From: Candidatus Hydrogenedentota bacterium
Lineage (GTDB): Bacteria; Hydrogenedentota; Hydrogenedentia; Hydrogenedentales; JAEUWI01
Direction of reading: 5' to 3'
Length of the DNA stretch: 64,000 nucleotides
Assembly (NCBI GenBank): GCA_024280935.1
Contig: JAJRPE010000115.1
Coordinates: 12,256 to 76,255 of the forward strand
Position numbers and translations under genes: made by a program. Below the pieces are notes generated by a model, which did no database searches, was not told where the DNA came from, and worked only from the letters and a program-made list of their open reading frames with translations. Positions 13,224-63,401 of this stretch are shown here, piece by piece (positions within the stretch are counted from its first letter, which is position 1; each line of letters opens with the position of its first letter).

Positions 13224-13321
13224 AAAGTTGCCCATTTGAAAGACAAGTACCCTCCATCCACATAAGCCGTTCAGGAGGACTGTGGAACCCAAGGCAATCC
13301 GTAGATGCTTGCCTGCATCTT

Positions 13322-18870: not shown

Positions 18871-19211
18871 AAAAAAAACCTGCTGGTAGAGACCAACAGG
18901 GCGAACGCATCGGAAACGTGATGCACGGTAAGCGTACACGGGTTGCGCACGCACGGAGACCACCGGCCAACGCACACACACCTCCTGCAATACGTTTTCA
19001 CGTACTCGGACGTATCCCAGCCTTCTCCCATCCGGACTTTAACCGTCGGCCCCGGAATTACACCGGTGTCTGCGCCGAAGCGCTCGCGGGCTTTCACCGC
19101 CGGTCAGGAATTGCACCATGCCCTGAAGGTCAGGTATGTTTCAGTTCTGGTTGTATTCTACCAAGCGGTAGGTTGTTCGGTCAATAAATTGGGCTTTGGG
19201 TTGTTGAAAAG

Positions 19212-26080: not shown

Positions 26081-26160
<80 letters not shown>

Positions 26161-29160: not shown

Positions 29161-29692
29161 GGTGAAGCTCCCGAGTTTGAAGGTCGTTCCTTATCCATTC
29201 ACAGGCCGCAACTTTCAGGGTCACTGGAACACTGCCATCAGAATAGCGATACGTTTTCATCGGACCGCTGCGTTGCAAAATGCACGTGTTTATGGTTGTA
29301 TATAAAAGATGTGAGATAATGCAAACGAGTACGATATGAGAAAAAAGGTTCTTCCGGTTCAAGGGTACGGTGTAGTTCAGAGCGACTTTCTTTGACTGTG
29401 TTTTTTCCTCGTCGTTGAGCGCCGAAGGTGCGTTTTATATCAGCCTGGGGCAACGCCCCAGGTCTCAAATCAGACAGAATTCAGGGCTGAAGGCCCGGCC
29501 CATAATCCAGCGGAAAATGGGCCTCTTGATTGGTATGAAACGGGCTTTCAGCCCTGTGGAATAGCTACATCCAGAAACCTGGGGCGTTGCCCCAGGCTGG
29601 TATGAACCCGGACCTTCGGCCCTGTAAAGCAACAAATACAAATAACATTGAACCGGATGAACCAAAAAAAAGCCGTCGGGTGCCACGGCCAA

Positions 29693-29800
29693 GGGGATTG
29701 GGCTTTCCAGCCCGACATAACGCGCACGGTGGGTGTCGAAAACGTACGTCGTGTTTGTGGTGATACATTGATTGTCCAAGACGGTGTATGGTGTGCAAGC
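29693..29800 (+). repeat. Family 2 MITE, left half only, abutting a family 3 MITE (nested or adjacent insertion)
   Basis: ggggattgggctttccagcccgacataacgcgc...gtcgaaaacg...acattgattgtccaag matches the left arms of the elements at 39672-39869, 61722-61920 and 63190-63392. Confidence 0.6.
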
Positions 29801-29810
29801 GTTCAGGGGC

Positions 29811-29950
29811 CGCTACGGGTGCCACGAACAAGGGGCGATAGCCCTTGTCCGTGCTTGGAAAGCATATCCACAGACAAGAAGCGAGTTTCCGGTCGAACTC
29901 TCATGGTCCGCACGGGCAAGCCCCACGGGGCTTGTCCGTGGCACCCGGAG
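29811..29950 (+). repeat. Family 3 MITE (about 140 bp; TIR gctacgggtgccacgRacaagggg / ccccttgtccgtggcacccgg)
   Basis: Other copies at 31748-31890 and 54931-55068. Confidence 0.75.
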
Positions 29951-30517
29951 ATTCCTTTTTAACCGGGAAGGATGTTGGAATTGGGTTGAGGCTGGGACTG
30001 CACCTCATCCAGGTAGCCTTGCCCAAACAAAGGCCACCGACGGGTGCCAAGCCCAATGCAGCACAACCCGTTGTCGGTGTGCGGGAGGGGTGTCAAATAG
30101 TTGTTACCCGTGACTATACGGTGCTAAAAAAGGGCGCTTGCCGACACCTTCCGCCCCTGCCCGCGCCGGGAGAAGCCGCTGTATAAGGGCTATCCTGTAG
30201 CGTGGCGACTCTGGCTCGATTCTTGTACCATAATGTCAGCAGACGAGCCTCAGACATTTTGGTGCGGCCGGACAAGGAACGCTGAGCCTTGGGAGCGCAC
30301 AGCCCTGTTTCTCCAAGCGCACGAACCCTCGTACCTCGTGATCGTGCGGCACGTCCGACAGGATTGAGGCTTAACCAGCGCCTGCCAATTTTCAACTATA
30401 CGTCATTCGCACAGATATGATAGGAGTCCCAAAAAACGACACTGGATCCCCGTGTTCGCGAGCCGCGCCAACGGAAGCTAAGCCCGCGCCAATCAGCGAG
30501 TTAAGCCTGCCTGGGGT

Positions 30518-34593: not shown

Positions 34594-34644
34594 GTCCCAT
34601 GATGGTTTTTGCTGGAGTTAAGCATTCACAAGGGAAGCGGCGAG

Positions 34645-34843
34645 GGTGTCACCTGCACAGACGTGAGGAACGAGCGGCTTTGTGGGTGCGAATCCCCCAG
34701 AGAAACTTAGGGGTGCAAGGAACTTAGTGCGAGGAACTACTTCGAGGGTGTTGGCGATACGCGTTTCGGTACCGACGGTCAATTTTCGCAAACCCGCACC
34801 CACAAGCTTAGCCGGGAACCGGCTGCGCGTGTAGGTGGCACCC
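34645..34843 (+). repeat. Family 5 MITE (about 200 bp; TIR ggtgccacctacacRcgcagccggttcccggc)
   Basis: Second copy at 44484-44680. The arms are gtgtcacctgcacagacgtgaggaacgagcggctttgtgggtg and cacccacaagcttagccgggaaccggctgcgcgtgtaggtggcacc. Confidence 0.75.
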
Positions 34844-34980
34844 TTGGGGTGTTCTTTATGAAGTTTGGCGCCTTCCGAGGTAAGTGCATGCAACACGGCT
34901 CCACATACTCAACGGCTACCCCACGCCTTGAAGGAATGGAACGGGTGTCGTACACTGCCCGCACGAAGGAGGAAGTACCC

Positions 34981-36492
34981 ATGCCCACCCCCCAGTTTTC
35001 TGCCCAGACCGTCGCCACCCATCTGGAACCCGTTCTGGCCGATGCCGTGGAGCGCAATTCCACCACCCACCTCAAGGCGGCACGGGACTATGCAACCCTC
35101 TTCACCGATGCCGACCTCGAACTATACCACCCCGAAAATATCTTCCAGACTTTCGTCGCCCACTTTCCGCCAAGCAGTTTTACCATTCATGTCGAACATG
35201 TGCGGGATGAACGGGTGGGTGATCCCGCCCGCATGTCGGCCTGTGTCGCCGCGCTACTGAAGGCCATTGAGCGGGACCCAAAAACGACTCTCGTGGTGGA
35301 GATCTACGAGGCGGAAGAACACGGCGATATGATTCCCCGCATGAGCATTTCCTTTGCCGGGCCGGGCCAGGTACCCGAACATTTTCGCTATGCGGAGCGA
35401 TTCCCCATGTCCCTGGAAGAGCTGAGCGACTGCTGGACCCTGGCCACCTCTGGGGGCCGCATTGACCGCACGGAAAATGGCGTGGAGATGCGCCTCCATG
35501 GCATGCGCATGCCGCCAGAGCCCTTGGAACTGGCCGCCCAAGTCGCAGCCTGTATCGGCCGGGATACTTCCCTCGAAGGAGCGGAGGAGTCGTTGGCCCT
35601 GTTGGAAGACACCGCGCCATCGGCCATGATGGACTTGGAGCGCGTCTACACCGAGGGCCTTGGGGAGCACGAAAAGGCGTTGGGCCAGGGCGGCGTGGTC
35701 CACAGCTACAGTTTCGGCGAGGTTTTTCCCCAATTGCCGCTGAATCGTGTCCGAATGCAGGGATTTTTTTCCAACCTCTTCGCGTGGGCCATTGAAGCCA
35801 TGCCGGATGGTGGCACCTTGGAGGCCCTGGTGGAATACGACGGATCAACGCGGGAAGCCACAGGCATGGTCAGCCTGAGTTCCGCAGCGGGTTCTATTGT
35901 TGACTCCTTTCACACGTCGCTGCTGAAACGGGCCATCAAACACCATAAAGGCACCATCGAAATAGAAATCGCGGAGGCCGAGGCTTCCGTCACCTTTAGC
36001 CTGGCCGATACGGTCGGCCAGTGCCTCGACGACTGGCTCCCCGACTGGGAGGCCTTCGGCGCAGAATCCAAAAAATTCCTTCGCCTCCTCAAGAGCGGAA
36101 CCCAGGCCCCGCCAGAAGAATTTATCCTCGGCGGCATCCTGGAGCAGGAACTGGAAAGCTGGCTCCTCCCCCGGCTCAAGGACCCCGTGACCGTTCACAT
36201 GGCAAACGAAGGCACCTTCAGAAACGAGGGCCTCAAAGGCAGTATCAAGGAACGCCTGAAAAAAGCGCTGGACCAAGTCGGGCGCGGCAAGCCCAAAAAG
36301 GAAATATGCGAACCCCAGTACGCGGGGGAACTCTTGGGCGCATTTCGGCAGGACATGCGCCACCGCAGCGCCCTCGGAACCCAAGTGCTGACGGACGAGG
36401 AGTTGCAAGAACTCTGCGAGGGTTTGCTGGCGAAACCGGTGGATGGAAGAGCCTGTTTGCTACGCTTGGCGCAGATGCTGCGCAGAAGTTAG
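34981..36492 (+). CDS. Hypothetical cytoplasmic protein (503 aa)
   Basis: ATG at 34981 with a strong AAGGAGG RBS 8 nt upstream. The track start at 34849 lies inside the MITE. No recognisable family. Confidence 0.5.
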   Translation: MPTPQFSAQTVATHLEPVLADAVERNSTTHLKAARDYATLFTDADLELYHPENIFQTFVAHFPPSSFTIHVEHVRDERVGDPARMSACVAALLKAIERDPKTTLVVEIYEAEEHGDMIPRMSISFAGPGQVPEHFRYAERFPMSLEELSDCWTLATSGGRIDRTENGVEMRLHGMRMPPEPLELAAQVAACIGRDTSLEGAEESLALLEDTAPSAMMDLERVYTEGLGEHEKALGQGGVVHSYSFGEVFPQLPLNRVRMQGFFSNLFAWAIEAMPDGGTLEALVEYDGSTREATGMVSLSSAAGSIVDSFHTSLLKRAIKHHKGTIEIEIAEAEASVTFSLADTVGQCLDDWLPDWEAFGAESKKFLRLLKSGTQAPPEEFILGGILEQELESWLLPRLKDPVTVHMANEGTFRNEGLKGSIKERLKKALDQVGRGKPKKEICEPQYAGELLGAFRQDMRHRSALGTQVLTDEELQELCEGLLAKPVDGRACLLRLAQMLRRS

Positions 36493-36493
36493 A

Positions 36494-36995
36494 AATCAGT
36501 AACCACCGGCAGAGCCGGGGGTATGAGGAGGGCCCCTAAAAGGGGCCGATTCGTCAAACTCAGGTACGAAGCCAAAGCAGTTAGTCCCGTAGGGACGACA
36601 TATCGTAGCCCAGCGGTGAAGCGAGGTACGAGCGGAACCCTGGGTAGACCGGTGCGCAAAGGGCTGAACTCCGAAGGAGTGGCATAAAAAATCAGGACAC
36701 ATTCCCAACACCTCTATGCCACCCCTTCGGGGTTAAACATCTATTGCATTCGAGCTATCCCAGGGTTCGCTTCACTCACGCCTAGGCTACGATATGTCGT
36801 CCCTACGGGACTAAAAGAACATGGCACACACCGCCCAGTGTATGAATGCCAACAACTATCGCCGGAACGGCAGAGCCTGATGAATTCTCACCGGCAGAGC
36901 CGGTGGATTAACTATGATTTAGAATGATGAATGTAGAATTGGAACCTCTTGCCGCAATTCACTATTCGCCATTCTAAATTCACTATTCACTATTC
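36494..36995 (+). repeat. Family 6 composite repeat region (begins atcagtaaccaccggcagagccggKgg; contains a long internal inverted repeat at 36575-36640 against 36750-36815 and a gaatagtgaatt microrepeat)
   Basis: Paralogous copy at 38517-38870. The gaatagtgaatt microrepeat recurs at 51420-51470. Confidence 0.65.
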
Positions 36996-37544
36996 TCAAT
37001 TCTCCTCCCCCTCCAGCTCTTCGATTAAATCCGAGGCATCGGCCTTGGACTTCGTGCGGGCGATTTGGGCACCCGTGGCGCCGAGCTTCTGGAGCAACTC
37101 AATTTGCATCCGAGTTGGGTTGAGGTGCATGGTCTCAATCAGCGCTGAGGCATCTGCTTGGCTGATGACCTTTTCGATACGGGCGGGCGGCGCACCGAGG
37201 CGCGCCAGGTGAGCCAGTTGTTTCTCCGTAGGCGGCGCTTGCTTGCGGTGCTCTGCCTTGAGGACATCGATACGGTCCGAGGCGGTGTCTTTGTCCAAGC
37301 CGAGGAGCTGGGACTCTTTGGCCCCCAAACGGCGCAAATACTCCAATTGGGCTTCGGAAGCGGGTTCGTCGGATTTTGCGGCGGGCATGTCTTCGACCAG
37401 ACTCGCGGCCTGGGGCGCGGGGTCATTGGGCGAACCGATAAGGGCAATCTTGGTGCCACATTTATTACAGCTTCCCCGTTGACCCAGATATTTTGGGGCA
37501 ATAGGGAGCACCTGTTTGCACGTTGGACATATAAATTGGAGCAT
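36996..37544 (-). CDS. MJ0042-type zinc-ribbon protein with three roughly 35-aa helical repeats (paralog A)
   Basis: The internal ATG at 37544 gives MLQFICPTCKQVLPI...CNKCGTKIALIG. Repeats: SEAQLEYLRRLGAKESQLLGL..., TEKQLAHLARLGAPPARIEKV..., TRMQIELLQKLGATGAQIART.... Confidence 0.5.
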   Translation of the reverse strand: MLQFICPTCKQVLPIAPKYLGQRGSCNKCGTKIALIGSPNDPAPQAASLVEDMPAAKSDEPASEAQLEYLRRLGAKESQLLGLDKDTASDRIDVLKAEHRKQAPPTEKQLAHLARLGAPPARIEKVISQADASALIETMHLNPTRMQIELLQKLGATGAQIARTKSKADASDLIEELEGEEN

Positions 37545-37590
37545 GTTGTTTTGTTGTCTCCGAGGGGGTTGCCCCACCCGAGCCTCTTTG

Positions 37591-38451
37591 CTAACTATAG
37601 TACTTCGGCTCAAGGGATTTCAGATAGGCCAATCCATCACGCAGGAGTTGGTCGCTCGATTCCGCGAGAGAGCGCCACATGCACGTGGCCGCGGCCATGG
37701 CCGGTGAAACGCTCTCGAAGGATTCCATCCCAACGATGCCCTGATAATTCGCCTCGCCAAGGGCCTTGTAGATGCCATCCCAATCCACGACACCGGTCCC
37801 AGGCGTTCCTCGGTGGCTTTCGCTCAGGTGAAAATGGCAAAGATGGGGAATGGCCTTCTTCGTCGGCGCGTAGAAATCACATTCCTCAATATTCATGTGG
37901 TAGGCGTCGAGGTGTACCCGCACATTGGGTTCGTCGATGCGCTCCATCAGGGCTAAGGCCTGGTCCGTCGTGTTGACGAGAAAGGTCTCGTAACGATTGA
38001 TGGCCTCGATCCCCAGCGTGACGCCATGATCCTGGGCATAGCGGGCCGCTTCCTTCATCACCGACGCGGCGCGTTCCCAATACGCCTCGCCGGGCCTTCC
38101 CGTAATCTTTCGTCCGATGGCGGAATAGGTCACGCCCGTAAAGACCGAGCCGCCCATATCGACCGTCGCCTTGATACACTGCTTGAGATAGTCCAAGCCC
38201 GCCGCACGCACGGCCTCGTCTTCTCCGGTGGGATCGGTGGTCTCGGAACAAGCCGTGGAGGTGCATAGCCCGATGCCCACCGCCCCGGCACGTTCCTTGA
38301 TGGCGGCAGCGTCCACCTTCTCGATCTCCATCAAGGGCACTTCGACAAGATCAAAGCCCAGGGCCTTCGCCTTGTCAATAATGTCGAGCGTGTCGTTGCT
38401 CCAACTGTTGGTCCACGCATAGGCATGCACCGCGTATTTCAATCCTGCCAT
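37591..38451 (-). CDS. Sugar phosphate isomerase/epimerase (xylose-isomerase-like TIM barrel)
   Basis: GFDLVEV...GIGLCTS...VDMGGSVFTG...LGIEAINRYETFLVNT...VHLDAYHMNIEE...VGMESF are AP_endonuc_2 / TIM-barrel signatures. Confidence 0.75.
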   Translation of the reverse strand: MAGLKYAVHAYAWTNSWSNDTLDIIDKAKALGFDLVEVPLMEIEKVDAAAIKERAGAVGIGLCTSTACSETTDPTGEDEAVRAAGLDYLKQCIKATVDMGGSVFTGVTYSAIGRKITGRPGEAYWERAASVMKEAARYAQDHGVTLGIEAINRYETFLVNTTDQALALMERIDEPNVRVHLDAYHMNIEECDFYAPTKKAIPHLCHFHLSESHRGTPGTGVVDWDGIYKALGEANYQGIVGMESFESVSPAMAAATCMWRSLAESSDQLLRDGLAYLKSLEPKYYS

Positions 38452-38516
38452 GTTTTTCTCCCTTTGGGTTCAGGCGCACGGTTTCAACGGGCGCGTTCTG
38501 AGATTACCAACGTTAA

Positions 38517-38870
38517 TCAGTAACCACCGGCAGAGCCGGTGGTATGAGGAAGGCCCCTGAAAGGGGCCGATGTCACCGGTAAAACAAAAAAGCACAAGTG
38601 CGCTTTTAGTCCACGAAGTGGACGACGGAACTTAGCCCAGTGTGGAGCGAGGTACGAGCGCAACGCTGGGTACCTGTATCATACACGGCCCAAACCCGCG
38701 TAGCGGGTGACGGAAGTTGTTCCGTTATTTCCGTCGACCGCTTCGCGGGCTTTTTCATCGTTCGTCCTTTATTCCCAGGGTTCCGCTGCGCTCCACCCTG
38801 GGCTAAGTTCCTGTGCCCCGCTGGGGCACCTTCGTAAACTCATAGGCTGATACATGTCGAAAAAACAAGG
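38517..38870 (+). repeat. Family 6 composite repeat copy
   Basis: atcagtaaccaccggcagagccggtggtatgaggaaggcccctgaaaggggccg..., parallel to the copy at 36494. Confidence 0.65.
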
Positions 38871-38875
38871 CGCAC

Positions 38876-38975
38876 CCACGTCATTCCCACGCACGTGGGA
38901 ATCCAGAACGCGGCAGATACATATCGTAACACCACTGGATCCCTGCGTTCGCGGGGATGACAATCTTGGGTTGTG
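38876..38975 (-). repeat. Family 1 composite REP/MITE (inverse orientation)
   Basis: cacgtcattcccacgcacgtgggaatccagaacgcggcag...caccactggatccctgcgttcgcggggatgac...ttgggttgtgggcaa. Confidence 0.8.
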
Positions 38976-38996
38976 GGCAAAACTCACCTTGGGGCA

Positions 38997-39563
38997 CTAA
39001 TACTCGCTTTCGTATTCTGTACAACCGCTATCGGACTCGTATTCTTCAATCATCGCCTGGGCTACCCCCTCGGTCGTGAGAAAGGACAGTTCCTCTTCGG
39101 TCACACCGTAGGTGCGCAGGAGCGAAAACTGTTCCTCGGTCGGGGGAGGCTGCAATACCTCAATGAGTCGAATCGCATCGCTCCTGGTCTTGAGGTGACT
39201 CAACTGCCCCTCAGTCGCACCCAGTTCTTTCAAGCGGGTGATTTGTTCCGGCGTGGGCGGTGCTCCATCATGAAGGGGCATGCCGATTTCTTCGGCAATC
39301 TCATCATCCCACGCGCCAATATCGTCCAGCGCCTCGTCCAGCCGCGACTCGAAGCCCTTCGCCCGCGCCACGGGAACAACCGAATTTGACGAAGGTGCGG
39401 GCAATTTCCTCGGGGGAAGGACCTGCGCGCGCTGGGCATTGAGCATGTTTCGCTCCCCGATTAGGGCGATACGCCCCCCACATTTCTTGCAATAACCCCG
39501 AAACCCCATAAATTGGGGGCGTATCTGGAGATTCTCTTCACAATGGGGACATATGAAAATCAT
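38997..39563 (-). CDS. MJ0042-type zinc-ribbon protein with roughly 35-aa helical repeats (paralog B)
   Basis: MIFICPHCEENLQIRP...CKKCGGRIALIG. Repeats: TPEQITRLKELGATEGQLSHL..., TEEQFSLLRTYGVTEEELSFL.... It has the same architecture as the gene at 36996-37544. Confidence 0.5.
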   Translation of the reverse strand: MIFICPHCEENLQIRPQFMGFRGYCKKCGGRIALIGERNMLNAQRAQVLPPRKLPAPSSNSVVPVARAKGFESRLDEALDDIGAWDDEIAEEIGMPLHDGAPPTPEQITRLKELGATEGQLSHLKTRSDAIRLIEVLQPPPTEEQFSLLRTYGVTEEELSFLTTEGVAQAMIEEYESDSGCTEYESEY

Positions 39564-39671
39564 GAAAATGCTCGCTTGGTTTATCTTAGGTTATAGCGTA
39601 CTGTACCGCAGGACGGGGCGTAAAATAAAAATACCCAAAGCGCTCACGGCCCGCGCAGGGAGCCGCAGGCA

Positions 39672-39869
39672 AGGAGGTTGGGCACCCCTGCCCGACACAA
39701 GGTGCATGGCGAGTATCGAAAACGGATGTAGTATTCGAGGTGGCACGTTGATTGCTCAAGACAGTCTATCGTGCTATGCCATTCGAATCCGACGCGCCTA
39801 CTGGTGCCGATGGTCGACTTTATGCCCGACGCGCCCTTTGTGTCGGGCAGGGATGCCCAACCTCCTCGC
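39672..39869 (+). repeat. Family 2 MITE (about 200 bp; TIR gg(a/g)ggttgggcaYYcctgcccgacaYaa)
   Basis: caaggaggttgggcacccctgcccgacacaa ... tttgtgtcgggcagggatgcccaacctcctcg. Copies at 61722-61920 and 63190-63392, plus a half-copy at 29693. Confidence 0.75.
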
Positions 39870-39931
39870 TTGACGTGACCGCGATAGTCCCTATAGAGTG
39901 GTGGCACTTATTGTCCCAATCTTTGGCAGGT

Positions 39932-42706
39932 ATGCGCAGCTCCAATGGGAAACCTATGAATCTCTTGACGACCGCACTTCGTGGCAATTCGCCCTATATC
40001 CCGTGCATCCTCATTGCGCTGACGGCGCTTCTCTTTCCCGCCCTGTCCCACTGCGATCAAGAGCAACCGCCCCACGTTTATTCGTCCGTCGCGTTGGATG
40101 ACGGGCAGTTCCTGAACACATGGGTTGTCTGCGGGCCTTTTCCCAATGCCAAGGTCACGGACAACCCGGCGGGAGGGTGGATTCATGACGCACGCTGCAC
40201 GGGGTTCTACACGGACTACCTCGGCAGCGTCGGCGGCGAAGGGCAGGTTGTCCCGCTGCCGGGCGACAAGGTGGAAGGCCCCGATGGTGAATCCCGCCGC
40301 TGGACTGCCGTGTCAACGCGAACAGGCCGCCTCTTTCTGGGCGACTTCATGTCTCCCACGACCAACCAAGTCGCCTATGCGGTGTGCTGGATTGACTGCG
40401 ATGCACCCAAGGACCGCTTGGTTGGTCTCGGCAGCAGCGATGGGGTACGGGTCTGGGTCAATGGCGCGGAAGTTTTTCGCGTCCACAAAGACCGCGCCCT
40501 CCAAGTCGATGAGAACTACTTTCGACTGCCCCTGACGACCGGACGGAACCAGGTTCTGCTGAAGGTGGAAAACGGCGAAGGGCGCTGGGGCTTTTCGTTG
40601 CGGCCGGTGGACAACCGTGATGCCCTCAAGTCCCTCATCCCCCGCCTCAAGGAAGCGCTGCGCTTCGACTATCAGACAGCCGACGATGGCTACACCGTGA
40701 CCTGGGGCGATCCAACCATTGTCGGCAACCTGGAAGGGCTGCCGGATGGGCGCATTACGCTCCAGACCCAGGACGGCGAAACAGCAGGCCACCTGGAAGT
40801 ACCCTTGGGCCGTCCCTTCTTCATTCCCTTCTCGGAATACACCGAGAAGACCTACCGCCTGAGCGGCGAAGTGCTCTGGCCCTATCGAGGAAAGGTGCGT
40901 GGGACGGGGCTGCTCTATCGCGGCGACCTCCAGCAAGAACTTCGGGGGCTGCTTGCCGCAAGCCGACCGGCCATGGCCTCGTCTCGTGCCGCCGATGCCT
41001 ACACCAGCGTACTCGATACCGTCGCCAGGGCAGTGCGCCTCCATTTCTTCGACAACGAGCCCCGCGCCTACCTTCGCCTGAAGGAGGGCATCACACGCGC
41101 CTTGGAAGGTGCCCTTGTGCTCCAGAACAGCCAGAGTCCCTACGAGCACCTCTTTCCGAAGCCAAAGCACGTCGGCACAAGTTCCAATGAGATGGCCGTC
41201 CTGACAGGAAACTGGATACTCTCCACTGCCGATTCTATCTTTGACGATTCGCTGGACGATGCCCTCTTCACACGGTGGAGCAAGCACACGGCGGCCATTA
41301 CGGGGACGAATACCGGCCATGTCTATGTTCTGGCCCTGGAAACGGATCTCCTCGCGACCCCTATCCCCGAACTGCGGGGCGATGATTCCGAATTCAAAGA
41401 AGCTGCCGAGTCTATTCGGGACCGGGTGCCCGAGGATCCGGAGGGCTACGCCATTCAAATCACAGCGGAACAGATCGTGGTTGCGGGCCGAACAGCGGAG
41501 GGTGCCCATTATGGGATGGATACGCTGCTCCAGTTGATCGCGCAGAATACAACGCTGGCAACGGCCACCATCATCGACGCCCCGGAACACCCGACCCGGG
41601 CCGCCATCCTGCCCCTGGAGAGCTTTGACGCGGATTTTCGCGACACCATCGACGAACTCGCCCATCTGCGCTTCAACACGGTGTTTCTGCCCTCGTCACT
41701 TTATCCAGACTTGGAAGACGAGGAAATACAACCCCTCCTCAAAGGGGCCTTCGCGTACTGCCGCGCCCGATTTGTGGAACCCATACCCCTTGTCGAGACC
41801 TTTGGCGCGCACACCCTTGCTGCGGAAATCGATCCCAACCTCCTGGAAGGCGTCTACATTGAGGAGGTGCCTATTGTCGTGGATGACCTTCGACGCCTCC
41901 ATTTGCCCTATGACCGCATACTCGTCAACGAAAGCACAACACCGGGATTGCGGACGAGCAAGGGCTACAAGATACTGCGAAAGGACCGGGACTTCGTCTT
42001 TGAATCCCTCGCGCCGCCCATCATCCAACTGAAAGGCAAAGCACCGGTTCAGACGGGCGCGACCCTGCTGGTGACGGCGGATGTCGTGGACCGCTCCCTG
42101 GCCTCAACGGGAGCGAGTTGCCCGTCAGACACCGAAGCCTGGATTCTCACGGAGCAGGTGCTGGACAGGATCTATGCCCACCTCTCCCCTGTGGGCATAC
42201 ACATCGGCCAGACGGGCGCAGGTTACCTCAATCGCGACAGCCGGTGCCTGGCGCGGGAGATGCCCAATGCCCTGCTGCTCGCCGACGCGGTCCAGAAAAG
42301 CTACGACATCGTTCGGAATTTTGACAAGAAAGCGCGCATCTATATGTGGGGCGACCACTTCAGTCCCCTCCAGCAAGCCCGATCCCTGGATGCCATGCGT
42401 GCGGCGGAATACCTTCCCAAGGATATTACCGTACTTGACGGGTGGCACCATGGCGCTTCCGACTACGACACCTGGCGCGTAGAACAAGGGATTCGTTTTT
42501 TCGACCAGTACGGATTAAAGACCTTGGGTGTCGTCCAGGATGATCCCCTGAATACCCAACAGGTTGCCACGTTGAAGCGCCGCTTCCCCCGACGATTCCG
42601 GGGCATTGTCCATCGCTTCGGAAACGCGCCTGATGATGGCCGCTATCTGGCCGCCGAAGCGGGTTGGCAAGGGGTAACGGCCTTGGGCACACCGTCGGCA
42701 GATTAA
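39932..42706 (+). CDS. Large secreted glycoside-hydrolase-like protein (GH20b-like N-domain then a TIM-barrel-like region)
   Basis: Signal peptide after the ATG at 39932 or 39956. QIVVAGRTAEGAHYGMDTLLQLIA resembles the GH20b domain. TIIDAPEHPTRAAILPLESFD...LRFNTVFL resembles the start of a GH20-type catalytic barrel. The track start at 39752 lies in the MITE. Confidence 0.35.
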   Translation: MRSSNGKPMNLLTTALRGNSPYIPCILIALTALLFPALSHCDQEQPPHVYSSVALDDGQFLNTWVVCGPFPNAKVTDNPAGGWIHDARCTGFYTDYLGSVGGEGQVVPLPGDKVEGPDGESRRWTAVSTRTGRLFLGDFMSPTTNQVAYAVCWIDCDAPKDRLVGLGSSDGVRVWVNGAEVFRVHKDRALQVDENYFRLPLTTGRNQVLLKVENGEGRWGFSLRPVDNRDALKSLIPRLKEALRFDYQTADDGYTVTWGDPTIVGNLEGLPDGRITLQTQDGETAGHLEVPLGRPFFIPFSEYTEKTYRLSGEVLWPYRGKVRGTGLLYRGDLQQELRGLLAASRPAMASSRAADAYTSVLDTVARAVRLHFFDNEPRAYLRLKEGITRALEGALVLQNSQSPYEHLFPKPKHVGTSSNEMAVLTGNWILSTADSIFDDSLDDALFTRWSKHTAAITGTNTGHVYVLALETDLLATPIPELRGDDSEFKEAAESIRDRVPEDPEGYAIQITAEQIVVAGRTAEGAHYGMDTLLQLIAQNTTLATATIIDAPEHPTRAAILPLESFDADFRDTIDELAHLRFNTVFLPSSLYPDLEDEEIQPLLKGAFAYCRARFVEPIPLVETFGAHTLAAEIDPNLLEGVYIEEVPIVVDDLRRLHLPYDRILVNESTTPGLRTSKGYKILRKDRDFVFESLAPPIIQLKGKAPVQTGATLLVTADVVDRSLASTGASCPSDTEAWILTEQVLDRIYAHLSPVGIHIGQTGAGYLNRDSRCLAREMPNALLLADAVQKSYDIVRNFDKKARIYMWGDHFSPLQQARSLDAMRAAEYLPKDITVLDGWHHGASDYDTWRVEQGIRFFDQYGLKTLGVVQDDPLNTQQVATLKRRFPRRFRGIVHRFGNAPDDGRYLAAEAGWQGVTALGTPSAD

Positions 42707-42747
42707 TGCTTCAATCTGGAAAAGCCGCTACAAAAGCAAGATAGGCC

Positions 42748-42850
42748 TACGTCATTCCCACGAAAGTGGGAATCCAGAACGCGGCAGGAGCACATCGAAA
42801 CACCACTGGATCCCCGCATTCGCGAGGATGACGGTCTTGTTGCGACCAGC
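42748..42850 (-). repeat. Family 1 composite REP/MITE (inverse orientation)
   Basis: acgtcattcccacgaaagtgggaatccagaacgcggcag...caccactggatccccgcattcgcgaggatgac. Confidence 0.8.
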
Positions 42851-42999: not shown

Positions 43000-44463
43000 A
43001 TGACCGATCATGAACATCCGAACAACTCCGAAGGCAAGGCTGCACCCAATCGTCTGGCCGTCATGCTGGTCCAGCACGGGCTGCTAAGCACCGCCCAGAT
43101 TCAGGCGGCACAAGCCCTTGAGGAAGACCTTGCCACAACGCTCGTCGACTTGGGCTTCCTCACGGAAGATCAACTTACCGCCTTTTTCGTCAAGGCGATG
43201 AAGATTCCCCGCCTGGGTCTGCAGGATTATCAAATCGACCTCGAAACCCTGAAAATAGTACCCCAGGAATTGTGCCTCCAGCACCGCCTCCTCCCCATCG
43301 ATCTTCTGGGCAAGAATTTGACCTTGGCCATGGTAAATCCGCTGGATGACGAGGCGCTGGATCGAGTCCGCACGGTCTGTTCGAACTATCGCATCAAGGC
43401 CTTCCATTGCACGCGCACCGATTTCGAGTTGGTCTCGGGGCGGCTGTTCCAGGAGAAAAAAAACTCCGAAAACGGAGCCGGAGACATGAGCCTGGGCAGT
43501 CTCGGTCTCAAGCCGAGCACCGCCCCCAAAAAGCAGGCGGCAGAGTCGATTTCACCGCCAGGGAATGGCGGCGATGCACAAGCGACTATGCTCTTTGACA
43601 GTAAGATTCCCGCTCCTAAACGCCCCGCCGCCCCCATGCGCTCCTGCCTGATCTGCCTGGACGGCTGGGAGCTTGGCAAGGAAGTAGAGATCACGGCAGA
43701 CACGCACATCATCGGGCGTTCGCCGAAGGCGGACACAACCATCAATTCGCCCTTAATTTCTCGGGAACACGCACGCATAACCCGGGACACCGGTCACGGG
43801 CAAGAGACCTTTGTGATCAACGACATGAAGTCGAGCAATGGGACTTTTGTTAACAACGTCCCCCTCACGACAACCATTCTGCGCCACGGGGATCGCATCC
43901 TCGTTGGCGATGTCCTGTTCAAGTTTGTCCTCCTGGACGAAATCGAAGCGCGTTTTCACCAGGATGTTCATCGCCTCTATAGCATCCACAAAGATACCGG
44001 CCTGTTGCCAGCCGATGCATGGCGCAAGGAACTGGCCCGCGCACTGGCCGCCGCGCCGACGACACCGCTGACCACCTGCCTTATCGAGATCGACGGCTTG
44101 GAACGCATCAGACAGGCCCATGGTCACATTGCGGGTGTCATCGTCCTGAATGACATCAGCGACATGCTCGGCATGCATCTGGAGAAGACGGATCTCCCCG
44201 GGGACTACGGCCCGGGTCGAATTGCGGTTCTCCTGGAAGGAAAACCCATCGAGGCGGCTTTCCCGATACTGGAAGATCTGCGGCGGACCGTAGAAGCCCA
44301 CGCCTTCCATCACAAGGACACGCAGTTTCAATGCACCATCAGCATTGGCATCGGCGTGGTTACGGTGGCTGGAACACAGCCCGAAGCGATTATCACCCAG
44401 TTGGAAGCAGCCTTGGCATCGGCCATCGAAGGCGGACACAACCAGACCTGCGTCGCCCAGTAG
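43000..44463 (+). CDS. Regulatory protein: GspE/MshE N-terminal-like domain + FHA domain + degenerate GGDEF domain
   Basis: T2SE_Nter-like: LLSTAQIQAAQALEEDLATTLVDLGFLTEDQL...LLPIDLLGKNLTLAMVNPLD. FHA: HIIGRSPKADTTINSPLISREHARI...NGTFVNNVPL...GDRILVGDVLFKF. GGDEF-like: LIEIDGLERIRQAHGH...LPGDYGPGRIAVLLEG. The signature reads DYGPGR rather than GGDEF, so the domain is probably non-catalytic. Confidence 0.6.
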   Translation: MTDHEHPNNSEGKAAPNRLAVMLVQHGLLSTAQIQAAQALEEDLATTLVDLGFLTEDQLTAFFVKAMKIPRLGLQDYQIDLETLKIVPQELCLQHRLLPIDLLGKNLTLAMVNPLDDEALDRVRTVCSNYRIKAFHCTRTDFELVSGRLFQEKKNSENGAGDMSLGSLGLKPSTAPKKQAAESISPPGNGGDAQATMLFDSKIPAPKRPAAPMRSCLICLDGWELGKEVEITADTHIIGRSPKADTTINSPLISREHARITRDTGHGQETFVINDMKSSNGTFVNNVPLTTTILRHGDRILVGDVLFKFVLLDEIEARFHQDVHRLYSIHKDTGLLPADAWRKELARALAAAPTTPLTTCLIEIDGLERIRQAHGHIAGVIVLNDISDMLGMHLEKTDLPGDYGPGRIAVLLEGKPIEAAFPILEDLRRTVEAHAFHHKDTQFQCTISIGIGVVTVAGTQPEAIITQLEAALASAIEGGHNQTCVAQ

Positions 44464-44483: not shown

Positions 44484-44680
44484 GGGTGCCACCTACACAG
44501 ACGCGAGGGACGAGCGGCTTTGTGGGTGCGGTCTTGCCGGAAAAACCAGATTTCCGACGAAGACATCTTGGGACACTGAGGGTTTAGGTTCACTGCCCCA
44601 ATAATCGTACTGGTCACTTTCCATAACCCCACACCCACAAACTTCGCCGGGAACCGGCTGCGTGTGTAGGTGGCACCCTC
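44484..44680 (+). repeat. Family 5 MITE copy
   Basis: gggtgccacctacacagacgcgagggacgagcggctttgtgggtg ... cacccacaaacttcgccgggaaccggctgcgtgtgtaggtggcaccc. Confidence 0.75.
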
Positions 44681-46164: not shown

Positions 46165-46549
46165 GGGGACTGCCTCGCCCAAGGTCGCGTTACTTGGTGA
46201 AGTGATCTTCGTGGCGAACACGTTCACTGAGGTATGGGATTACCCCTTCAGCAGGCGGGGCTGTCCCCAGACAAATAGCGCCCACGTCTCTCGTTTTGAG
46301 ACAGCACGCCGGGGACTGCCTCGCCCAAGGTCGCAGCACGCAGGGGTAGTAAACTTCGGGGCCAGCAAATCCACCAAGGTATGCAACGCCCACTTCAAAA
46401 GGCGGGGCTGTCCCCAGACAAATAGCGCCCTCGTCTCTCGTTTGGGGACAGCACGCCTCCTGAAGAGCTATTTCCTACTTGAAAAATTACATGCTGGACC
46501 ACAACGCTCGCTTCACTACACAACGTGGGCGTGGGCGAGGCAGTCCCCT
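46165..46549. repeat. REP/BIME-like array on the 3' side of the RAYT (ggggactgcctcgcccaaggtcgc units alternating with ggcggggctgtccccaga...tggggacag hairpins)
   Basis: Two forward REPs at 46165 and 46311 and an inverted REP at 46535-46549 (gggcgaggcagtcccc). Confidence 0.8.
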
Positions 46550-47177
46550 ATTTCATCTTCCGCCGCACCATTTCCTGAAACGCGAGACTGCCCAGTGGAC
46601 GCCCCCGATTCGTGTGGGACCGTATCTTCTTCACCATACCGACATCTTCAATCGCCACCAACAGGGTCTCTCGCCATTCATCGATACTGAACTGGCTCTT
46701 CCAGCGCGTCAGATTGAGCAACGCGTCGTCCACGCCATCGATGCAGTGGGCACGGGCGCTCGACCACGGGTGGTCCCAAGCGAATTCTTCCATGCCCGCC
46801 CGGACGGGATTCAATTCAACATACGCGAGCGCATTCAACATATGCGGCTCATCCATGGGACAGGAGAAGAAACGGCTTTGCCACAGATGGCCCACATGCT
46901 CGTACCGCTTGCCCAGATAGGCCGTATAACTTTGATGCGTCCCACCGACGGCTTTCGCAAGGGATTCTTCCCGTGCGGGCACACCAACCAGATGAACGTG
47001 GTTCGTCATCAGGCAATAGCCAAGAATCCGCAAACCGTGCTCTCGCGTGTGTTCTTTCAACAGCGTAAGATACTTGCGCCGGTCTTGCTCGTCGAAGAAA
47101 ACCTGCTGCTTCTGATTGCCCCGTTGGGTGACATGATGCGCAACCCCCGGAAGCACTATGCGTGCTGTTCTAGGCAT
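46548..47177 (-). CDS. REP-associated tyrosine transposase (RAYT / TnpA_REP, IS200-like Y1 HUH)
   Basis: ATG at 47177. IVLPGVAHHVTQRGNQKQQVFFDEQDRRKYLTLLKEHTREHGLRILGYCLMTNHVHLVGVP...YVELNPVRAGM carries the HUH motif (HVH) and a catalytic Tyr. REP arrays flank it on both sides. Confidence 0.8.
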   Translation of the reverse strand: MPRTARIVLPGVAHHVTQRGNQKQQVFFDEQDRRKYLTLLKEHTREHGLRILGYCLMTNHVHLVGVPAREESLAKAVGGTHQSYTAYLGKRYEHVGHLWQSRFFSCPMDEPHMLNALAYVELNPVRAGMEEFAWDHPWSSARAHCIDGVDDALLNLTRWKSQFSIDEWRETLLVAIEDVGMVKKIRSHTNRGRPLGSLAFQEMVRRKMK

Positions 47178-47196
47178 GATGTCATGGTAGCATAAC

Positions 47197-47733
47197 GGGG
47201 ACTGCCTCGCCCAAGGTCGCGACGCGCAGGAAAATCCACTTCGTGACGGACAGATCTGCTGCGGTATACAATGAAAACCCCAAGCAAGGCGGGGCTGTCC
47301 CCAGATCAAATAGCACCCGCGTCTCTTGTTTGGGGACAGTACGCCGGGGACTGCCTCACCCAAAGCCGCGACGTGCAGGGTATCCACTTCCTAACGGACA
47401 GGTCTGCTATGGTATGGAACGGAACCCCAAACAGGCGGGCTGTCCCCAGATCAAATAGCACCCGCGTCTCTTGTTTGGGGACAGTACGCCGGGGACTGCC
47501 TCGCCCAAAGCCGCGACGTGCAGGGTATCCACTTCCTAACGGACAGGTCTGCTATGGTATGGAACGGAACCCCAAACAGGCGGGGCTGTCCCCAGATCAA
47601 ATAGCACCCGCGTCTCTTGTTTGGGGACAGCCCCGCCTTCTGAAAGACCATTTTCTACTCAAGGATATACATGCTGGCCACAACGCGCACGACACTTGGG
47701 CAACGTGGGCCTGGGCGAGGCAGTCCCCAGAAT
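47197..47733. repeat. REP array on the 5' side of the RAYT, including three tandem units of about 146 bp (47197-47640) and a terminal inverted REP
   Basis: The unit is ggggactgcctcRcccaaRgYcgcgacgtgcagggtatccacttcctaacggacaggtctgctatggtatggaacggaaccccaaacaggcggggctgtccccagatcaaatagcacccgcgtctcttgtttggggacagtacgcc, repeated three times. Confidence 0.85.
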
Positions 47734-51077: not shown

Positions 51078-51078
51078 G

Positions 51079-51420
51079 GGGACTGCCTCGCCCAAGGCCA
51101 CGTAGCTCAGGGGTATGGGCTACGTGGCCAGCAACACAGTTTCAGGTTGGGGGCTGCTCGGTCAACAGGCGGGGCTGTCCCCAGAACAAAAGGCGGCGGA
51201 AGGAATTGGGACAGCCCCGCCTATTGAAGTCCTCTCCATAGTTTTAGCGAGCTTGCTCGCCAAAACGCACACCTCCCTTCCACAACACAGGCTTGGGCGA
51301 GGCAGTCCCCGGGACTGCCTCGCCCAAGGCCACGTAGTTCAACAAGATAAGCTACGTGGCCAACGGCACCGTTTCAGGTTGGGGGCTGCTCGGTCAACAG
51401 GCGGGGCTGTCCCCAGAACA
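51079..51420. repeat. Third REP/BIME cluster of the RAYT-associated family, with a head-to-head REP pair at 51296-51330 and a gaatagtgaatt microrepeat at 51420-51470
   Basis: ggggactgcctcgcccaaggccacg appears twice. gggcgaggcagtccccgggactgcctcgccc is an inverted dimer. Confidence 0.8.
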
Positions 51421-54876: not shown

Positions 54877-54930
54877 TAAACAGTCTCCTTCGTGACATCC
54901 TGCATTCAAACCCTGTACGCGTTCACGATT

Positions 54931-55068
54931 CGCTACGGGTGCCACGGACAAGGGGCGACAGCCCTTGCCCGTGTTTGGAAAACATATTCAACAGACAAGA
55001 AGCAAGTTTTCGGTCGATCCCATGTTCCGCATGGGCAAGCCCCACAGGGCTTGTCCGTGGCACCCAGA
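54931..55068 (+). repeat. Family 3 MITE copy
   Basis: cgctacgggtgccacggacaaggggcgacagcccttgtccgtg...gggcttgtccgtggcacccagagg. Confidence 0.75.
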
Positions 55069-55262
55069 GGTTATTTCTTGTAACTGAGGCTAATCTATGT
55101 CGTGAACGCTTACAAAACCCTATGGCAGCTATTCAACCCTATTGGGGAGCTATAATCAAGTCAGTGAAGAATGATATTTACCCCGGAAAGAATAGAAAAC
55201 GAATGGATGACGGAGGAACATGGTCACTTCGTTCCCATCACAGGCGAGACGCCTGTGCCACC

Positions 55263-61721: not shown

Positions 61722-61920
61722 AGGGGGTTGGGCATTCCTGCCCGACATAAAGCGCACGTCGAGTGTCGAAAACGCACGTATAGATCGTGGTAACACATTG
61801 GACATCCAGGCCAGGGCATCGTGCCTTCTTAATCAAGTCTTGGTTGATTGCATCTGCCGGTGTCGGGTTTTATGTCCGACGCGCCCTTTATGTCGGGCTG
61901 GAAAGCCCAACCCCCTTTCC
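61722..61920 (+). repeat. Family 2 MITE copy immediately 3' of the DUF1559 gene
   Basis: agggggttgggcattcctgcccgacataaagcgc ... gcgccctttatgtcgggctggaaagcccaaccccct. Confidence 0.8.
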
Positions 61921-61934
61921 ACCAAAAGCTCCCA

Positions 61935-62990
61935 TCAATTCAGTGCGCTTGATTGAGGCGGTCGCTGTGTATCGCCAATTGGCGCTTCCAGTGTACCCTC
62001 CACCGCATCGCGGAGGATCTGCCCTGCCTCGTTAAAGGGAAACGGTGTTCTCCCTCCCAAATATATCCCCTCCACATGTCCGTCCATGTAGAGTACGTTG
62101 GCCCGCCGCATGTGGGGAAAGATGGTCGATACATGGGGCACGGCTTCGTGGAGTACGACAATACTTTTCTCGGCAGTATACATTGCCGCCGGATTACAAA
62201 TTTCGCGCATAAGAAAACGTCCTACACCTTCACGAAGAGATGGAATCTCCGAGCCAAACGGAATCTTCAGGGCCTTTCCGCTGGGGTATTCCAAGTCCCA
62301 AGTCTGCATGGAGCGGTTGAAATCGCCGGATTTCATCTTCTCCGCCAAAGAGAGGGTGGCGAGTCTGAACCGCATGTTGTGAATGTGCGGCGTATACTCG
62401 TCGGTTACCCTTAGCGACCGCCCCCAACCGCGTTTCCGCATGTTCTCTGTCAGAACATCTTCCGGATCAGCATCTTCCGTCCGAGGGAACGGCCCAAATG
62501 TCAATTCAGACAGCGCCCAACCGTAGTAATAGTAGGGCTTGCCAAGCATCTCACACGGCTCAACGGTGCCATTATTGCTGTAGCCCTCGACCGCCTCCCA
62601 ACGAGGATTGGTCGTCTTCCCCTCATCCCAGACTTCGATAGCGGTCTTGCCGGGACCGTAGGATGGGCAGACAAAGAGGTCCAGATCCGTCAGGTATTCA
62701 GGGTAGACCTCCGCGAGGTCCATGGCCCCGCTCCAGGGCTGGATGTTGCCGTTGCAATCATCGAGTTTCGGCTTGGGAAAGCGCTGCCCCTTGGACTCCT
62801 CTGTGTACATGGACATGGCCTGCCCGATTTGCTTGAGTTTCGCCTGGCAGGGTAGCAGGTCTCTTGTCAACAACACACGGGGAATCTGGCTGACAGCAAT
62901 TAGCCCGAGCACCGCAAGCAATATCATTGCCACGATAAATTCTATTCGTGTAAGCGGTTTCCGAAGCGTTCTACCTTTTGGATTTGCCAT
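61935..62990 (-). CDS. Prepilin-type N-terminal domain + DUF1559 (H-X9-DG) protein, typical of Planctomycetota
   Basis: N-terminus KGRTLRKPLTRIEFIVAMILLAVLGLIAVS is pseudopilin-like. C-terminal NVLYMDGHVE is the H-X9-DG-type motif. Confidence 0.6.
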   Translation of the reverse strand: MANPKGRTLRKPLTRIEFIVAMILLAVLGLIAVSQIPRVLLTRDLLPCQAKLKQIGQAMSMYTEESKGQRFPKPKLDDCNGNIQPWSGAMDLAEVYPEYLTDLDLFVCPSYGPGKTAIEVWDEGKTTNPRWEAVEGYSNNGTVEPCEMLGKPYYYYGWALSELTFGPFPRTEDADPEDVLTENMRKRGWGRSLRVTDEYTPHIHNMRFRLATLSLAEKMKSGDFNRSMQTWDLEYPSGKALKIPFGSEIPSLREGVGRFLMREICNPAAMYTAEKSIVVLHEAVPHVSTIFPHMRRANVLYMDGHVEGIYLGGRTPFPFNEAGQILRDAVEGTLEAPIGDTQRPPQSSALN

Positions 62991-63189
62991 GTGGCTCCCT
63001 TCCAAATTGTCGCCTTCGCTACCGTTATCGACAGTATCACGTAAGCCTGAAAAGAAACCACTGCCAAGTTCGTGATGGCTTTCAGCGCCAAAAACTCAAG
63101 ACATTCGCCTACGGCAAGATCTGCGACCCAATGTGAAGCTACCGGAGCTGGTGGCGCCCTTCACGGCCCATGCTGGGCACTACGCACAA

Positions 63190-63392: not shown

Positions 63393-63401
63393 AAGCTCCC
63401 A

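Follow-up and report, generated by a model that had tools for sequence, protein, structure and literature searches.

The helical repeat that two small zinc-ribbon proteins of a Candidatus Hydrogenedentota bacterium have in common was identified by profile comparison as DUF3072 (PF11272), a Pfam domain that is named but uncharacterised. Both proteins are encoded on the minus strand of the 64,000-nucleotide stretch of DNA that was analysed as a whole (hereafter the window). Gene A (36996..37544; 182 aa) encodes a zinc ribbon and three DUF3072-type repeats, and gene B (38997..39563; 188 aa) a zinc ribbon and two DUF3072-type repeats, with an acidic helix between ribbon and repeats and an acidic tail that ends in Y. 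An earlier note on this DNA had described two paralogous genes at these positions, and both ORFs held up on that strand. Their products were 34% identical over the full length (BLASTP, E 2e-27), and neither ORF contained a frameshift or an internal stop; judged by sequence, A and B are intact paralogs. The start M-x-F-I-C-P-x-C, which the same note had given for both proteins, applied to B (MIFICPHC), while that of A was one residue longer (M-x-x-F-I-C-P-x-C; MLQFICPTC). An upstream TTG start for A (37613, 205 aa) was rejected because most homologs were 179 aa long and started at the methionine of MLQF; a GGAG was present approximately 13 nt 5' of the ATG of A at 37544. Neither protein had a transmembrane segment, and both are best explained as small, soluble, enzyme-less cytoplasmic proteins.

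Homologs formed 53 clusters of the A type and 31 of the B type, the latter at 61–79% identity, and the architecture of A and B was found only in Hydrogenedentota. The ribbon cysteines and the residues of the repeat motif were invariant in homolog alignments, and dN was about 0.15 with synonymous sites (dS) saturated; both genes are evidently under purifying selection. A reading of the two ORFs as decayed fragments or spurious frames in a repeat-rich region could draw on the repeat elements that crowd this region and on the public entry nearest to B (P0057), which was 100% identical over 79% of B, was shorter (149 aa), and lacked the ribbon. The full-length orthologs in all of these clusters, the invariant residues, the low dN with saturated dS, the uninterrupted frames, and the confident structure prediction for A (AlphaFold2, mean pLDDT 88; the model of B had a pLDDT of 71) leave that reading with next to no probability, and conservation has already refuted it. 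The frameshifted gene remnants that the earlier note had considered thus gave way to two intact, conserved genes.

The assignment of the repeat was based on matches at several levels. Protein A matched DUF3072 in two stretches with 31.6 bits (gathering cutoff 27.5, E 1.4e-7), and in alignment A2, which consists of both window genes and 49 A-type homologs, 49 of the 51 sequences matched at E ≤ 0.1 (best 2.8e-13). The match is located in the single repeat unit and not only in the whole protein, as indicated by isolated units of 38–41 aa, 26 of which (out of 41) matched DUF3072, the best at 1.9e-8; no other Pfam family recurred in more than two of the 41. Protein B gave no match to the DUF3072 model at E ≤ 1 and is tied to the domain only through its homology to A and through its unit scores (z 9.5–15 against the units of A). 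The repeat had initially been taken for an unnamed, possibly new one, which these matches overturned; the alternative, that it would match a well-known domain, came true in part, since DUF3072, although named, is a domain of unknown function. No paper on DUF3072 or PF11272 was found in the literature. The motif as first read, (T/S)-E-x-Q-h-x-x-L-x-x-L-G-A...-L-I-E, agreed with the family consensus PPTExQxxYLRxLGA....L....A.AS.LIE.L, and the repeat shares with DUF3072 the signature (P)T-x-x-Q-x-x-Y-L-x-x-L-(G) ... (S/T)K-x-E-A-S-x-x-I-D-x-L. A and B carry two or three tandem units behind a zinc ribbon, an architecture confined to Hydrogenedentota, whereas P0228, the clearest canonical-looking member among the matches, lacks a ribbon and contains one or two units.

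Each repeat was modelled by AlphaFold2 as a small three-helix unit, in line with the helical repeats proposed earlier, with an invariant Gln opening helix 1, an L-G turn, and A-S...L-I in helix 3. In A (all coordinates minus strand), repeat 1 spans aa 60–100 (37245..37367; helices 64–72, 77–80, and 85–102; best DUF3072 stretch aa 59–98), repeat 2 aa 104–141 (37122..37235; helices 107–116, 120–125, and 129–140), and repeat 3 aa 142–179 (37008..37121; helices 145–153, 158–163, and 167–181). The two repeats of B (aa 102–139 and 140–177; 39033..39260, minus strand) were modelled with three helices each at a pLDDT of 83–89. The copy numbers of three and two agreed with the earlier count, but the start-to-start spacing was 38–44 aa instead of about 35. 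Unit-versus-unit scores were tested against 2000 shuffles, which the units of A and B exceeded with z of 5–15: repeat 1 of A scored 5.9–7.5 against the other A units, repeat 2 scored 13.8 against repeat 3, and the score of repeat 3 against B's first repeat was 15.1. No repeat signal (shuffle z < 1.5) came from the part of B aligned to repeat 1 of A. Its place is taken by an acidic helix with conserved columns (FESxLDxALxxIxxWDDE, aa 71–93; 39285..39353, minus strand), modelled at 74–93 with low confidence. The acidic tail of B (aa 178–188; 39000..39032, minus strand), which closes with (E/D)(F/Y)ES(D/E)Y, was predicted to be disordered and is conserved, with S177 and the terminal Y188 almost invariant in orthologs.

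According to the models, the fold of the repeat weakly resembles Red-beta C-terminal, Rho N-terminal, and SAP-like domains, and it can be likened to small three-helix modules that bind nucleic acid or a partner and include SAP/HeH and the helicase-associated (HA) domain PF03457. None of the 41 isolated units matched Pfam Rho_N or SAP, a point against a nucleic-acid role of the repeat. PDB sequence searches with full-length and repeat profiles retrieved no naturally occurring homolog of the repeat; the best-scoring matches, TIM barrels and repeat proteins designed de novo, were discarded as spurious, having only a KQ.E.LRRLGA helix in common with it. Foldseek against viral structures gave no match at E ≤ 0.001, and when A, B, and the repeat proteins were scanned against PHROGs, nothing informative was returned for the repeat. 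The repeat region had a median pI of 7.2, with whole proteins ranging from 4.6 to 10.1 and B at 4.6; that it is not consistently basic also speaks against such a role.

The N-terminal ribbons occupy aa 1–50 in both proteins, with C6, C9, C26, and C29 followed by a beta-hairpin in A (37395..37544, minus strand) and C5, C8, C25, and C28 in B (39414..39563, minus strand). The reported C-x2-C...C-x2-C pattern was recovered in both as CxxC-x16-CxxC, of which A and B were the sole carriers among the stop-to-stop frames of at least 80 codons in the window. Almost all residues of the B ribbon were invariant across 18–29 orthologs. The label MJ0042-type, given in the earlier note, was weakly supported. 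Zn_ribbon_4 was matched by 26 of 51 members (best E 0.0028) and Zn_ribbon_5 by six of 51 (best E 0.0061), all below the curated cutoffs of about 30 bits, and the GltJ/AgmX zinc ribbon matched marginally (E 0.0048; hhalign 96.6%), but neither A nor B matched TIGR02098 (NCBIfam) at E ≤ 1. The ribbon may resemble the N-terminal MJ0042-type/Zn_ribbon_4 ribbons of Caulobacter ZitP and Myxococcus GltJ (AgmX), which are reported to dock PopZ and MglA-GTP, respectively (PMC5182065, PMC11135422). In contrast to MJ0042-type proteins, A and B lack a transmembrane segment and DUF3426 or GYF-type partner domains, and their ribbon is lengthened by a conserved beta-hairpin (ALIG...PQxASxV). In Foldseek against the PDB, LysW was the sole match for the ribbon, whose fold corresponds to that of LysW/ArgW carriers; instead of an EDWGE tail right after the ribbon, however, A and B have about 130 aa of repeats. 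A and B were not counted among the LysW/ArgW carriers, since DUF3072 repeats come after their ribbon, their C-termini are different, and no gene for LysX, LysZ, LysY, or an ArgX-type ligase turned up in the neighbourhoods inspected. A ribbon-only profile gave no match at E ≤ 1e-3 in a database of 5.8 billion proteins. The MshEN-HDOD protein of the window (7162-8781, minus strand), to which a similar ribbon had been ascribed, does have a ribbon-like N-terminus (C-x-C...C-x-x-C), which aligned to the ribbon profile with an hhalign probability of 94.5%.

As had been noted, A and B flank an AP_endonuc_2 TIM barrel (37591..38451, minus strand; 286 aa; Pfam E 1e-43, 150 bits, cutoff 31). The previous name, sugar-phosphate isomerase, was weakly supported: the best NCBIfam match was D-psicose 3-epimerase (199.4 bits, E 1.1e-58), short of the equivalog cutoff of 300, and the product is better described as a putative ketose-3-epimerase-like member of the AP_endonuc_2 superfamily. 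The order B-epimerase-A occurred in eight loci (the window and seven others), the epimerase-like orthologs of the other seven being 79–91% identical; the trio of L024 was divergent, with identities of 40% for A, 38.5% for B, and 79% for the epimerase. A gene of about 504 aa (34978..36492, plus strand), convergent with A, is conserved next to A-type genes and adjoined A in 13 loci, down to 33–36% identity (tblastn); it had neither a Pfam match nor a PDB sequence match. No DNA-related neighbour was present in the genomic contexts examined, which again counts against a nucleic-acid role.

The spacers of the window contain MITE-like elements, as the earlier note had held, with terminal inverted repeats of 23–51 nt, and several of the element families have two to four copies within the window. 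One lies downstream of A (36581..36814; 39-nt terminal inverted repeats, 92% complementary), one between B and the epimerase (38627..38811; 23-nt terminal inverted repeats, 96% complementary; partial similarity to 36616-36646), and one upstream of B (39666..39872; 51-nt inverted arms; related copies at 29692, 61722, and 63189). A 57-nt double-hairpin repeat (38515..38571) recurs with 95% identity at 36494-36550, its 18-nt core occurring three times in the window against zero expected, and a 108-nt repeat (38861..38968) recurs with 82% identity at 42732-42839. The spacer between B and the epimerase, which holds such elements and a terminator-like hairpin, measures 545 nt in the window vs. 41 nt in L008. 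The inverted-repeat sequence tested was not found in the 25 fetched loci, and a promoter and terminator scan gave counts not above shuffled expectation.

Outside this family, the repeat is widespread. A repeat profile search returned 508 representative proteins (clusters at 50% identity) at E ≤ 1e-3, and partner domains were surveyed in the best 150 of these at least 508 matches. Within that set, 119 matches were from outside the family; most had no recognisable second domain, and about 14 contained a nucleic-acid enzyme domain, the partners including RNase_T/DEDDh exonuclease (eight), ResIII SF2 helicase (three), and PLDc_2 (three). That the recognisable non-family partners in the best 150 of at least 508 are mostly nucleic-acid enzymes speaks for a nucleic-acid role; that no more than about 14 of the 119 have such an enzyme domain speaks against it. 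The repeat was C-terminal in the exonuclease, helicase, and PLD nuclease examples inspected, which fits the DNA-binding or interaction module surmised earlier. Three proteins with two repeats have a C-terminal SSB-like tail (DDDSPPF, DDDGDMPF, and ADDDVPF), and an N-terminal ribbon was present in 31 of the 145 top matches (best of at least 508), with the order ribbon-exonuclease-repeat in P0177 and P0214; both these tails and the recurrence of ribbon plus repeat in other architectures likewise favour a nucleic-acid role. The neighbours of the SSB-like-tail proteins and of one ribbon-exonuclease-repeat protein, on contigs under 2.6 kb, gave no PHROG match; for the proteins with SSB-like tails, this uninformative context counts against a nucleic-acid role.

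We tentatively propose that A and B are enzyme-less adaptors that act on nucleic acids or the nucleoid through a binding activity of their repeats. The DUF3072 modules would associate with nucleic acid either through direct contact with DNA or RNA, as three-helix motifs of the HeH, SAP, or Rho-N type do, or by tethering to the nucleoid or replisome, and a partner bound by the ribbon would be brought to the nucleic acid. B may have derived from a duplicated A, with the acidic helix in place of the first repeat, and may have gained its conserved acidic tail ending in Tyr as a further docking peptide. A broader version, in which DUF3072 is a widespread, unrecognised nucleic-acid-targeting HeH-like module that tethers exonucleases, helicases, and PLD nucleases and forms SSB-like recruitment hubs in the proteins with SSB-like tails, with A and B as a lineage-specific nucleoid-associated adaptor pair, is speculative and on present evidence unlikely; A and B would then possibly cooperate through the acidic tail of B and with the 504-aa neighbour.

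Purely protein-protein docking by the DUF3072 modules, with A and B as multivalent scaffolds or adaptors that make no nucleic-acid contact, is conceivable but rather doubtful. The modules would share a hub such as a scaffold or another protein's acidic C-terminal peptide; the Red-beta C-terminal domain, for instance, binds the SSB tail. The near-neutral to acidic repeat region is in keeping with docking, as is the conserved acidic tail of B, which could itself be a ligand for the repeats of either protein. Recruitment is a frequent function of small C-terminal domains on exonucleases and helicases. The possibly related ribbons of ZitP and GltJ are reported to be protein-docking modules (PMC5182065, PMC11135422). 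No partner can be named, however, and the combination of repeats with an SSB-like tail is more readily understood as a recruiting tail joined to a DNA-binding part; docking is also compatible with the proposed nucleic-acid adaptors rather than exclusive of them. A role tied to the epimerase-like enzyme, as accessory or regulatory subunits (assembly, localisation, or regulation) or in transcriptional control of the operon, is improbable. The trio is kept in eight loci, including the divergent L024, and gaps of only 41–50 nt in L006 and L008 suggest co-transcription, yet A-type genes of other lineages stand without epimerase or B (L001/L022, L003/L020, L009, L019, L021, L023, and L025), the 545-nt spacer with its hairpin separates B from the epimerase in the window, and hundreds of unrelated architectures contain the repeat. 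No such subunits are known for AP_endonuc_2 enzymes.

As the evidence stands, the outcome is one of annotation, with a repeat that already had a name and with A and B as ordinary conserved hypothetical proteins. If the proposed nucleic-acid adaptors are real, DUF3072, with at least about 500 clusters and many architectures, would gain a testable role in nucleic-acid or replisome tethering, and two putative nucleoid or adaptor proteins could be assigned to a candidate phylum of which little is known.

Two intact open reading frames on the minus strand, gene A at 36996-37544 (182 aa) and gene B at 38997-39563 (188 aa), were found where the earlier note had placed them, in a window of 57% G+C. 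Their products aligned across essentially their full length (34% identity, E 2e-27 in BLASTP), which marks them as paralogs, as had been proposed. The gene between them (37591-38451, minus strand) encodes a predicted AP_endonuc_2 TIM barrel (Pfam, E 1e-43), but the name sugar-phosphate isomerase was not retained: the best NCBIfam match, D-psicose 3-epimerase, fell short of its 300-bit cutoff with 199 bits, for which reason the gene is called 'ketose-3-epimerase-like', its substrate not being assignable. The ATG at 39563 was taken as the real start of B because orthologs have an invariant ribbon. The closest public entry to B, P0057 (NCBI, 78-kb contig; 149 aa, 100% identity over 79% of B), appears to start at Met40, omitting the whole zinc ribbon.

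There are three repeat units in A (aa 60-100, 104-141 and 142-179) and two in B (aa 102-139 and 140-177). Unit-versus-unit local alignment scores exceeded 2000 shuffles with z = 5-15, and the helical repeats described earlier are thus real. The B stretch aligned with the first unit of A gave no repeat signal in the shuffle test (z < 1.5) and is a conserved acidic helix (FESxLDxALxxIxxWDDE) in B orthologs. In the consensus of 41 units from 14 proteins (PPTExQxxYLRxLGA....L....A.AS.LIE.L), Gln was invariant and T, two L, G, A and I were each at least 90% conserved. Pfam DUF3072 (PF11272) matched A with 31.6 bits, over the gathering cutoff of 27.5, as well as 49 of 51 sequences in the A2 alignment, which comprises the two window genes and 49 A-type homologs (best E 2.8e-13), and 26 of the 41 isolated single units (best E 1.9e-8); no other Pfam family recurred among the 41 units scanned. 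The repeat, previously regarded as an unnamed motif, can hence be assigned to an already named, uncharacterised domain, DUF3072; no mention of 'DUF3072' or 'PF11272' was found in full-text literature. B had no DUF3072 match at E ≤ 1 (Pfam) and is classed, through its link to A, as a divergent member.

A-type proteins formed 53 clusters at 90% identity, with Candidatus Hydrogenedentes as the source wherever one was given, and B-type proteins formed 31. A scan of species-representative genomes returned 11 loci, eight labelled Hydrogenedentota, Hydrogenedentes or Hydrogenedentales and the others 'uncultured bacterium', a metagenome chromosome and one bin labelled Nitrospirales. Compared with their orthologs in loci L006 and L008, A and B had a dN of ~0.15 with synonymous sites saturated, and dN/dS was 0.12 in the sole L006/L008 comparison with a defined dS. 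Ribbon cysteines and motif residues were invariant or nearly so among homologs. This conservation shows that A and B are functional rather than decayed genes, and decay or artefact was excluded as the origin of the reading frames.

At the N-terminus of both proteins is a zinc ribbon of the form CxxC-x16-CxxC (A, MLQFICPTC...CNKCG; B, MIFICPHC...CKKCG), found within the window only in these two among reading frames of at least 80 codons. TIGR02098 (the MJ0042 model) and other NCBIfam ribbon models gave no meaningful match to A or B, while Pfam Zn_ribbon_4 and Zn_ribbon_Thio2 matched 26 and 39 of 51 family members, all far under the cutoffs. The family profile matched the Myxococcus GltJ/AgmX zinc ribbon (7zok, E 0.0048) and LysW (E 0.015) in the PDB, and a ribbon-only profile aligned with the GltJ fragment at an hhalign probability of 96.6%. 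The sub-cutoff Pfam matches and the GltJ/AgmX similarity make the earlier label 'MJ0042-type' plausible yet below threshold. Its extension to the MshEN-HDOD protein (7162-8781, minus strand) was broadly right, since the ribbon-like N-terminus, LTCTCGQKMKIPVDATGRTFKCVRCAAHI, aligned with the A/B ribbon profile at 94.5% (hhalign), but its first knuckle is C-x-C (LTCTCGQ...CVRC) and not C-x-x-C as in A and B. The annotated TTG start of this gene is probably too far upstream.

AlphaFold2, run on the 51-sequence alignment, modelled A with confidence (mean pLDDT 88, pTM 0.55), showing a four-stranded ribbon, an additional beta-hairpin at aa 45-49, corresponding to the conserved ALIG...PQxASxV stretch, and three units, each consisting of three successive helices of ~9, ~5 and 12-18 residues. 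The weaker model of B (pLDDT 71) comprised the ribbon, a long helix at 74-93 (low confidence), two units of high confidence (pLDDT 83-89) and a tail predicted to be disordered. The repeat bears no more than a resemblance to the 'HeH/Rho-N-like' fold class, since its three-helix shape is generic and the scores are low. Foldseek returned only LysW from the PDB, matching the ribbon, and nothing significant from viral models. PDB sequence-profile matches to the repeat were all de novo designed proteins with one helix in common and were regarded as spurious.

The trio B-epimerase-A was detected by tblastn in the window and in L006, L008, L015, L016, L017, L018 and L024, the last being divergent (A 40%, B 38.5%, epimerase 79% identity); remaining lineages had a lone A-type gene without B or epimerase. 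A more persistent neighbour of A-type genes than the epimerase was a ~504-aa gene convergent with A (34978-36492, plus strand), which adjoined A in 13 loci (L001, L006-L009, L015, L017-L019, L021-L024; tblastn) at identities down to 33-36% and whose product had no Pfam or PDB sequence match. In the gene-called loci L001 and L006-L009, though not in the window, it was followed by M50 peptidase and class I tRNA synthetase genes. Genes for a GH20b-domain protein (39752-42706) and, downstream, an MshEN-FHA-GGDEF protein (43000-44463, plus strand) were syntenic with the trio in L006 and L008. The short intergenic gaps of the trio in L008 (41 and 44 nt) and L006 (50 and 89 nt) suggest an operon there.

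B and the epimerase gene are 545 nt apart in the window, with repeat elements filling the space. Two copies of a 57-nt double hairpin, 95% identical, sit at 36494-36550 and 38515-38571. Terminal inverted repeats flank the elements at 36581-36814 (39-nt arms, 92% complementary), 38627-38811 (23-nt arms, 96%) and 39666-39872 (51-nt arms, 80%; related copies at 29692, 61722 and 63189), and the sequence at 38861-38968 has a second copy at 42732-42839. The elements, and the gap of 545 nt versus 41 nt in L008, support a reading as MITE-like insertions, a softening of the earlier description as MITEs. A terminator-like hairpin and T-run (AAAAGCGCACTTGTGCTTTT TTGTTTT) lies inside the B-epimerase spacer at 38588-38607 (minus strand); terminator counts across the window showed no excess over shuffled expectation. 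Dense arrays of ~145-147-nt repeats (families D3-D7 and D10, up to 99-100% identical) at 46165-47730 and 51078-51420 overlap predicted ORFs near 46.2-47.8 kb and recur beyond the VWA/YfbK gene, and scattered intergenic families (60-260 nt, 74-92% identical) lie at 29692-29960, 54914-55079, 34644-34844, 44484-44679, 61722-61982 and 63189-63449. REP- or MITE-like elements appear to be abundant in this genome. The syntenic locus L006 carries, at 12646-13239, a gene that weakly matches Pfam Y1_Tnp and is thus Y1 transposase-like. Rfam identified in the window an FMN riboswitch (19016-19134, 102.6 bits), a 6S RNA (5697-5885, 50.2 bits) and an Acido-Lenti-1 sRNA (29418-29462, 40.5 bits), all on the minus strand; a tRNA-Pro(GGG) lies at 26081-26159 (plus strand).

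When 1.84 billion representative proteins were searched with a profile built on the 38-residue unit, 508 matched (E ≤ 1e-3), 55 of them with E ≤ 1e-10; the matched proteins are 41-1190 aa long and carry 1-7 copies. Among the best 119 matches outside the A/B family, Pfam domains at E ≤ 1e-4 were DUF3072 (18), RNase_T (DEDDh exonuclease; 8), ResIII SF2 helicase (3), PLDc_2 (3), TM2 (2) and TPR (2), plus domains seen once each, among them a topoisomerase zinc ribbon and the helicase-associated HA domain; in ten inspected architectures the enzyme domain was N-terminal and the repeat C-terminal. An N-terminal CxxC...CxxC ribbon in 31 of 145 top matches, including ribbon-exonuclease-repeat(-TM) and ribbon-repeat-TM proteins, identifies ribbon and repeat as recurrent partners. 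Tail-anchored proteins with a C-terminal hydrophobic segment combined a DUF3072 unit either with a DEDDh exonuclease and, variably, a zinc ribbon (P0177, P0214, P0222, P0160, P0171) or with a zinc ribbon (P0182, P0187, P0193, P0221, P0223). SSB-like C-terminal tails (...DDDSPPF, ...DDDGDMPF, ...ADDDVPF) were found on three small two-repeat proteins (P0119, P0120 and P0151, from L010, L014 and L013); their contigs, < 2 kb, were too short to be informative, and the neighbours had no PHROG match.

These fusions are the main functional clue for DUF3072, and the exonuclease, helicase and PLDc_2 partners are consistent with the earlier suggestion that the module binds DNA or mediates interactions. 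We tentatively favour a reading of A and B as enzyme-less adaptors, in which the DUF3072 modules would target nucleic acid, the nucleoid or the replisome, the ribbon would dock partner proteins and the acidic ...ESDY tail of B would add partner docking. Ribbons of other proteins are described as docking sites, that of ZitP for PopZ (PMC5182065) and that of GltJ for MglA-GTP (PMC11135422). However, basic charge is not a consistent property of the repeat region (median pI 7.2; B pI 4.6), the fold matches include pure protein-binding bundles, and most repeat-bearing proteins lack an informative partner domain. The chief rival, a purely protein-protein scaffold, is judged only somewhat less likely than the adaptor reading. 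A dedicated role with the epimerase, with which A and B share the trio, is improbable because A-type genes outside this clade occur without it.

The observation made in the earlier note was confirmed and its interpretation partly supported: the combination of zinc ribbon and tandem repeats in A and B is a new, lineage-specific architecture inside the known DUF3072 family of unknown function.
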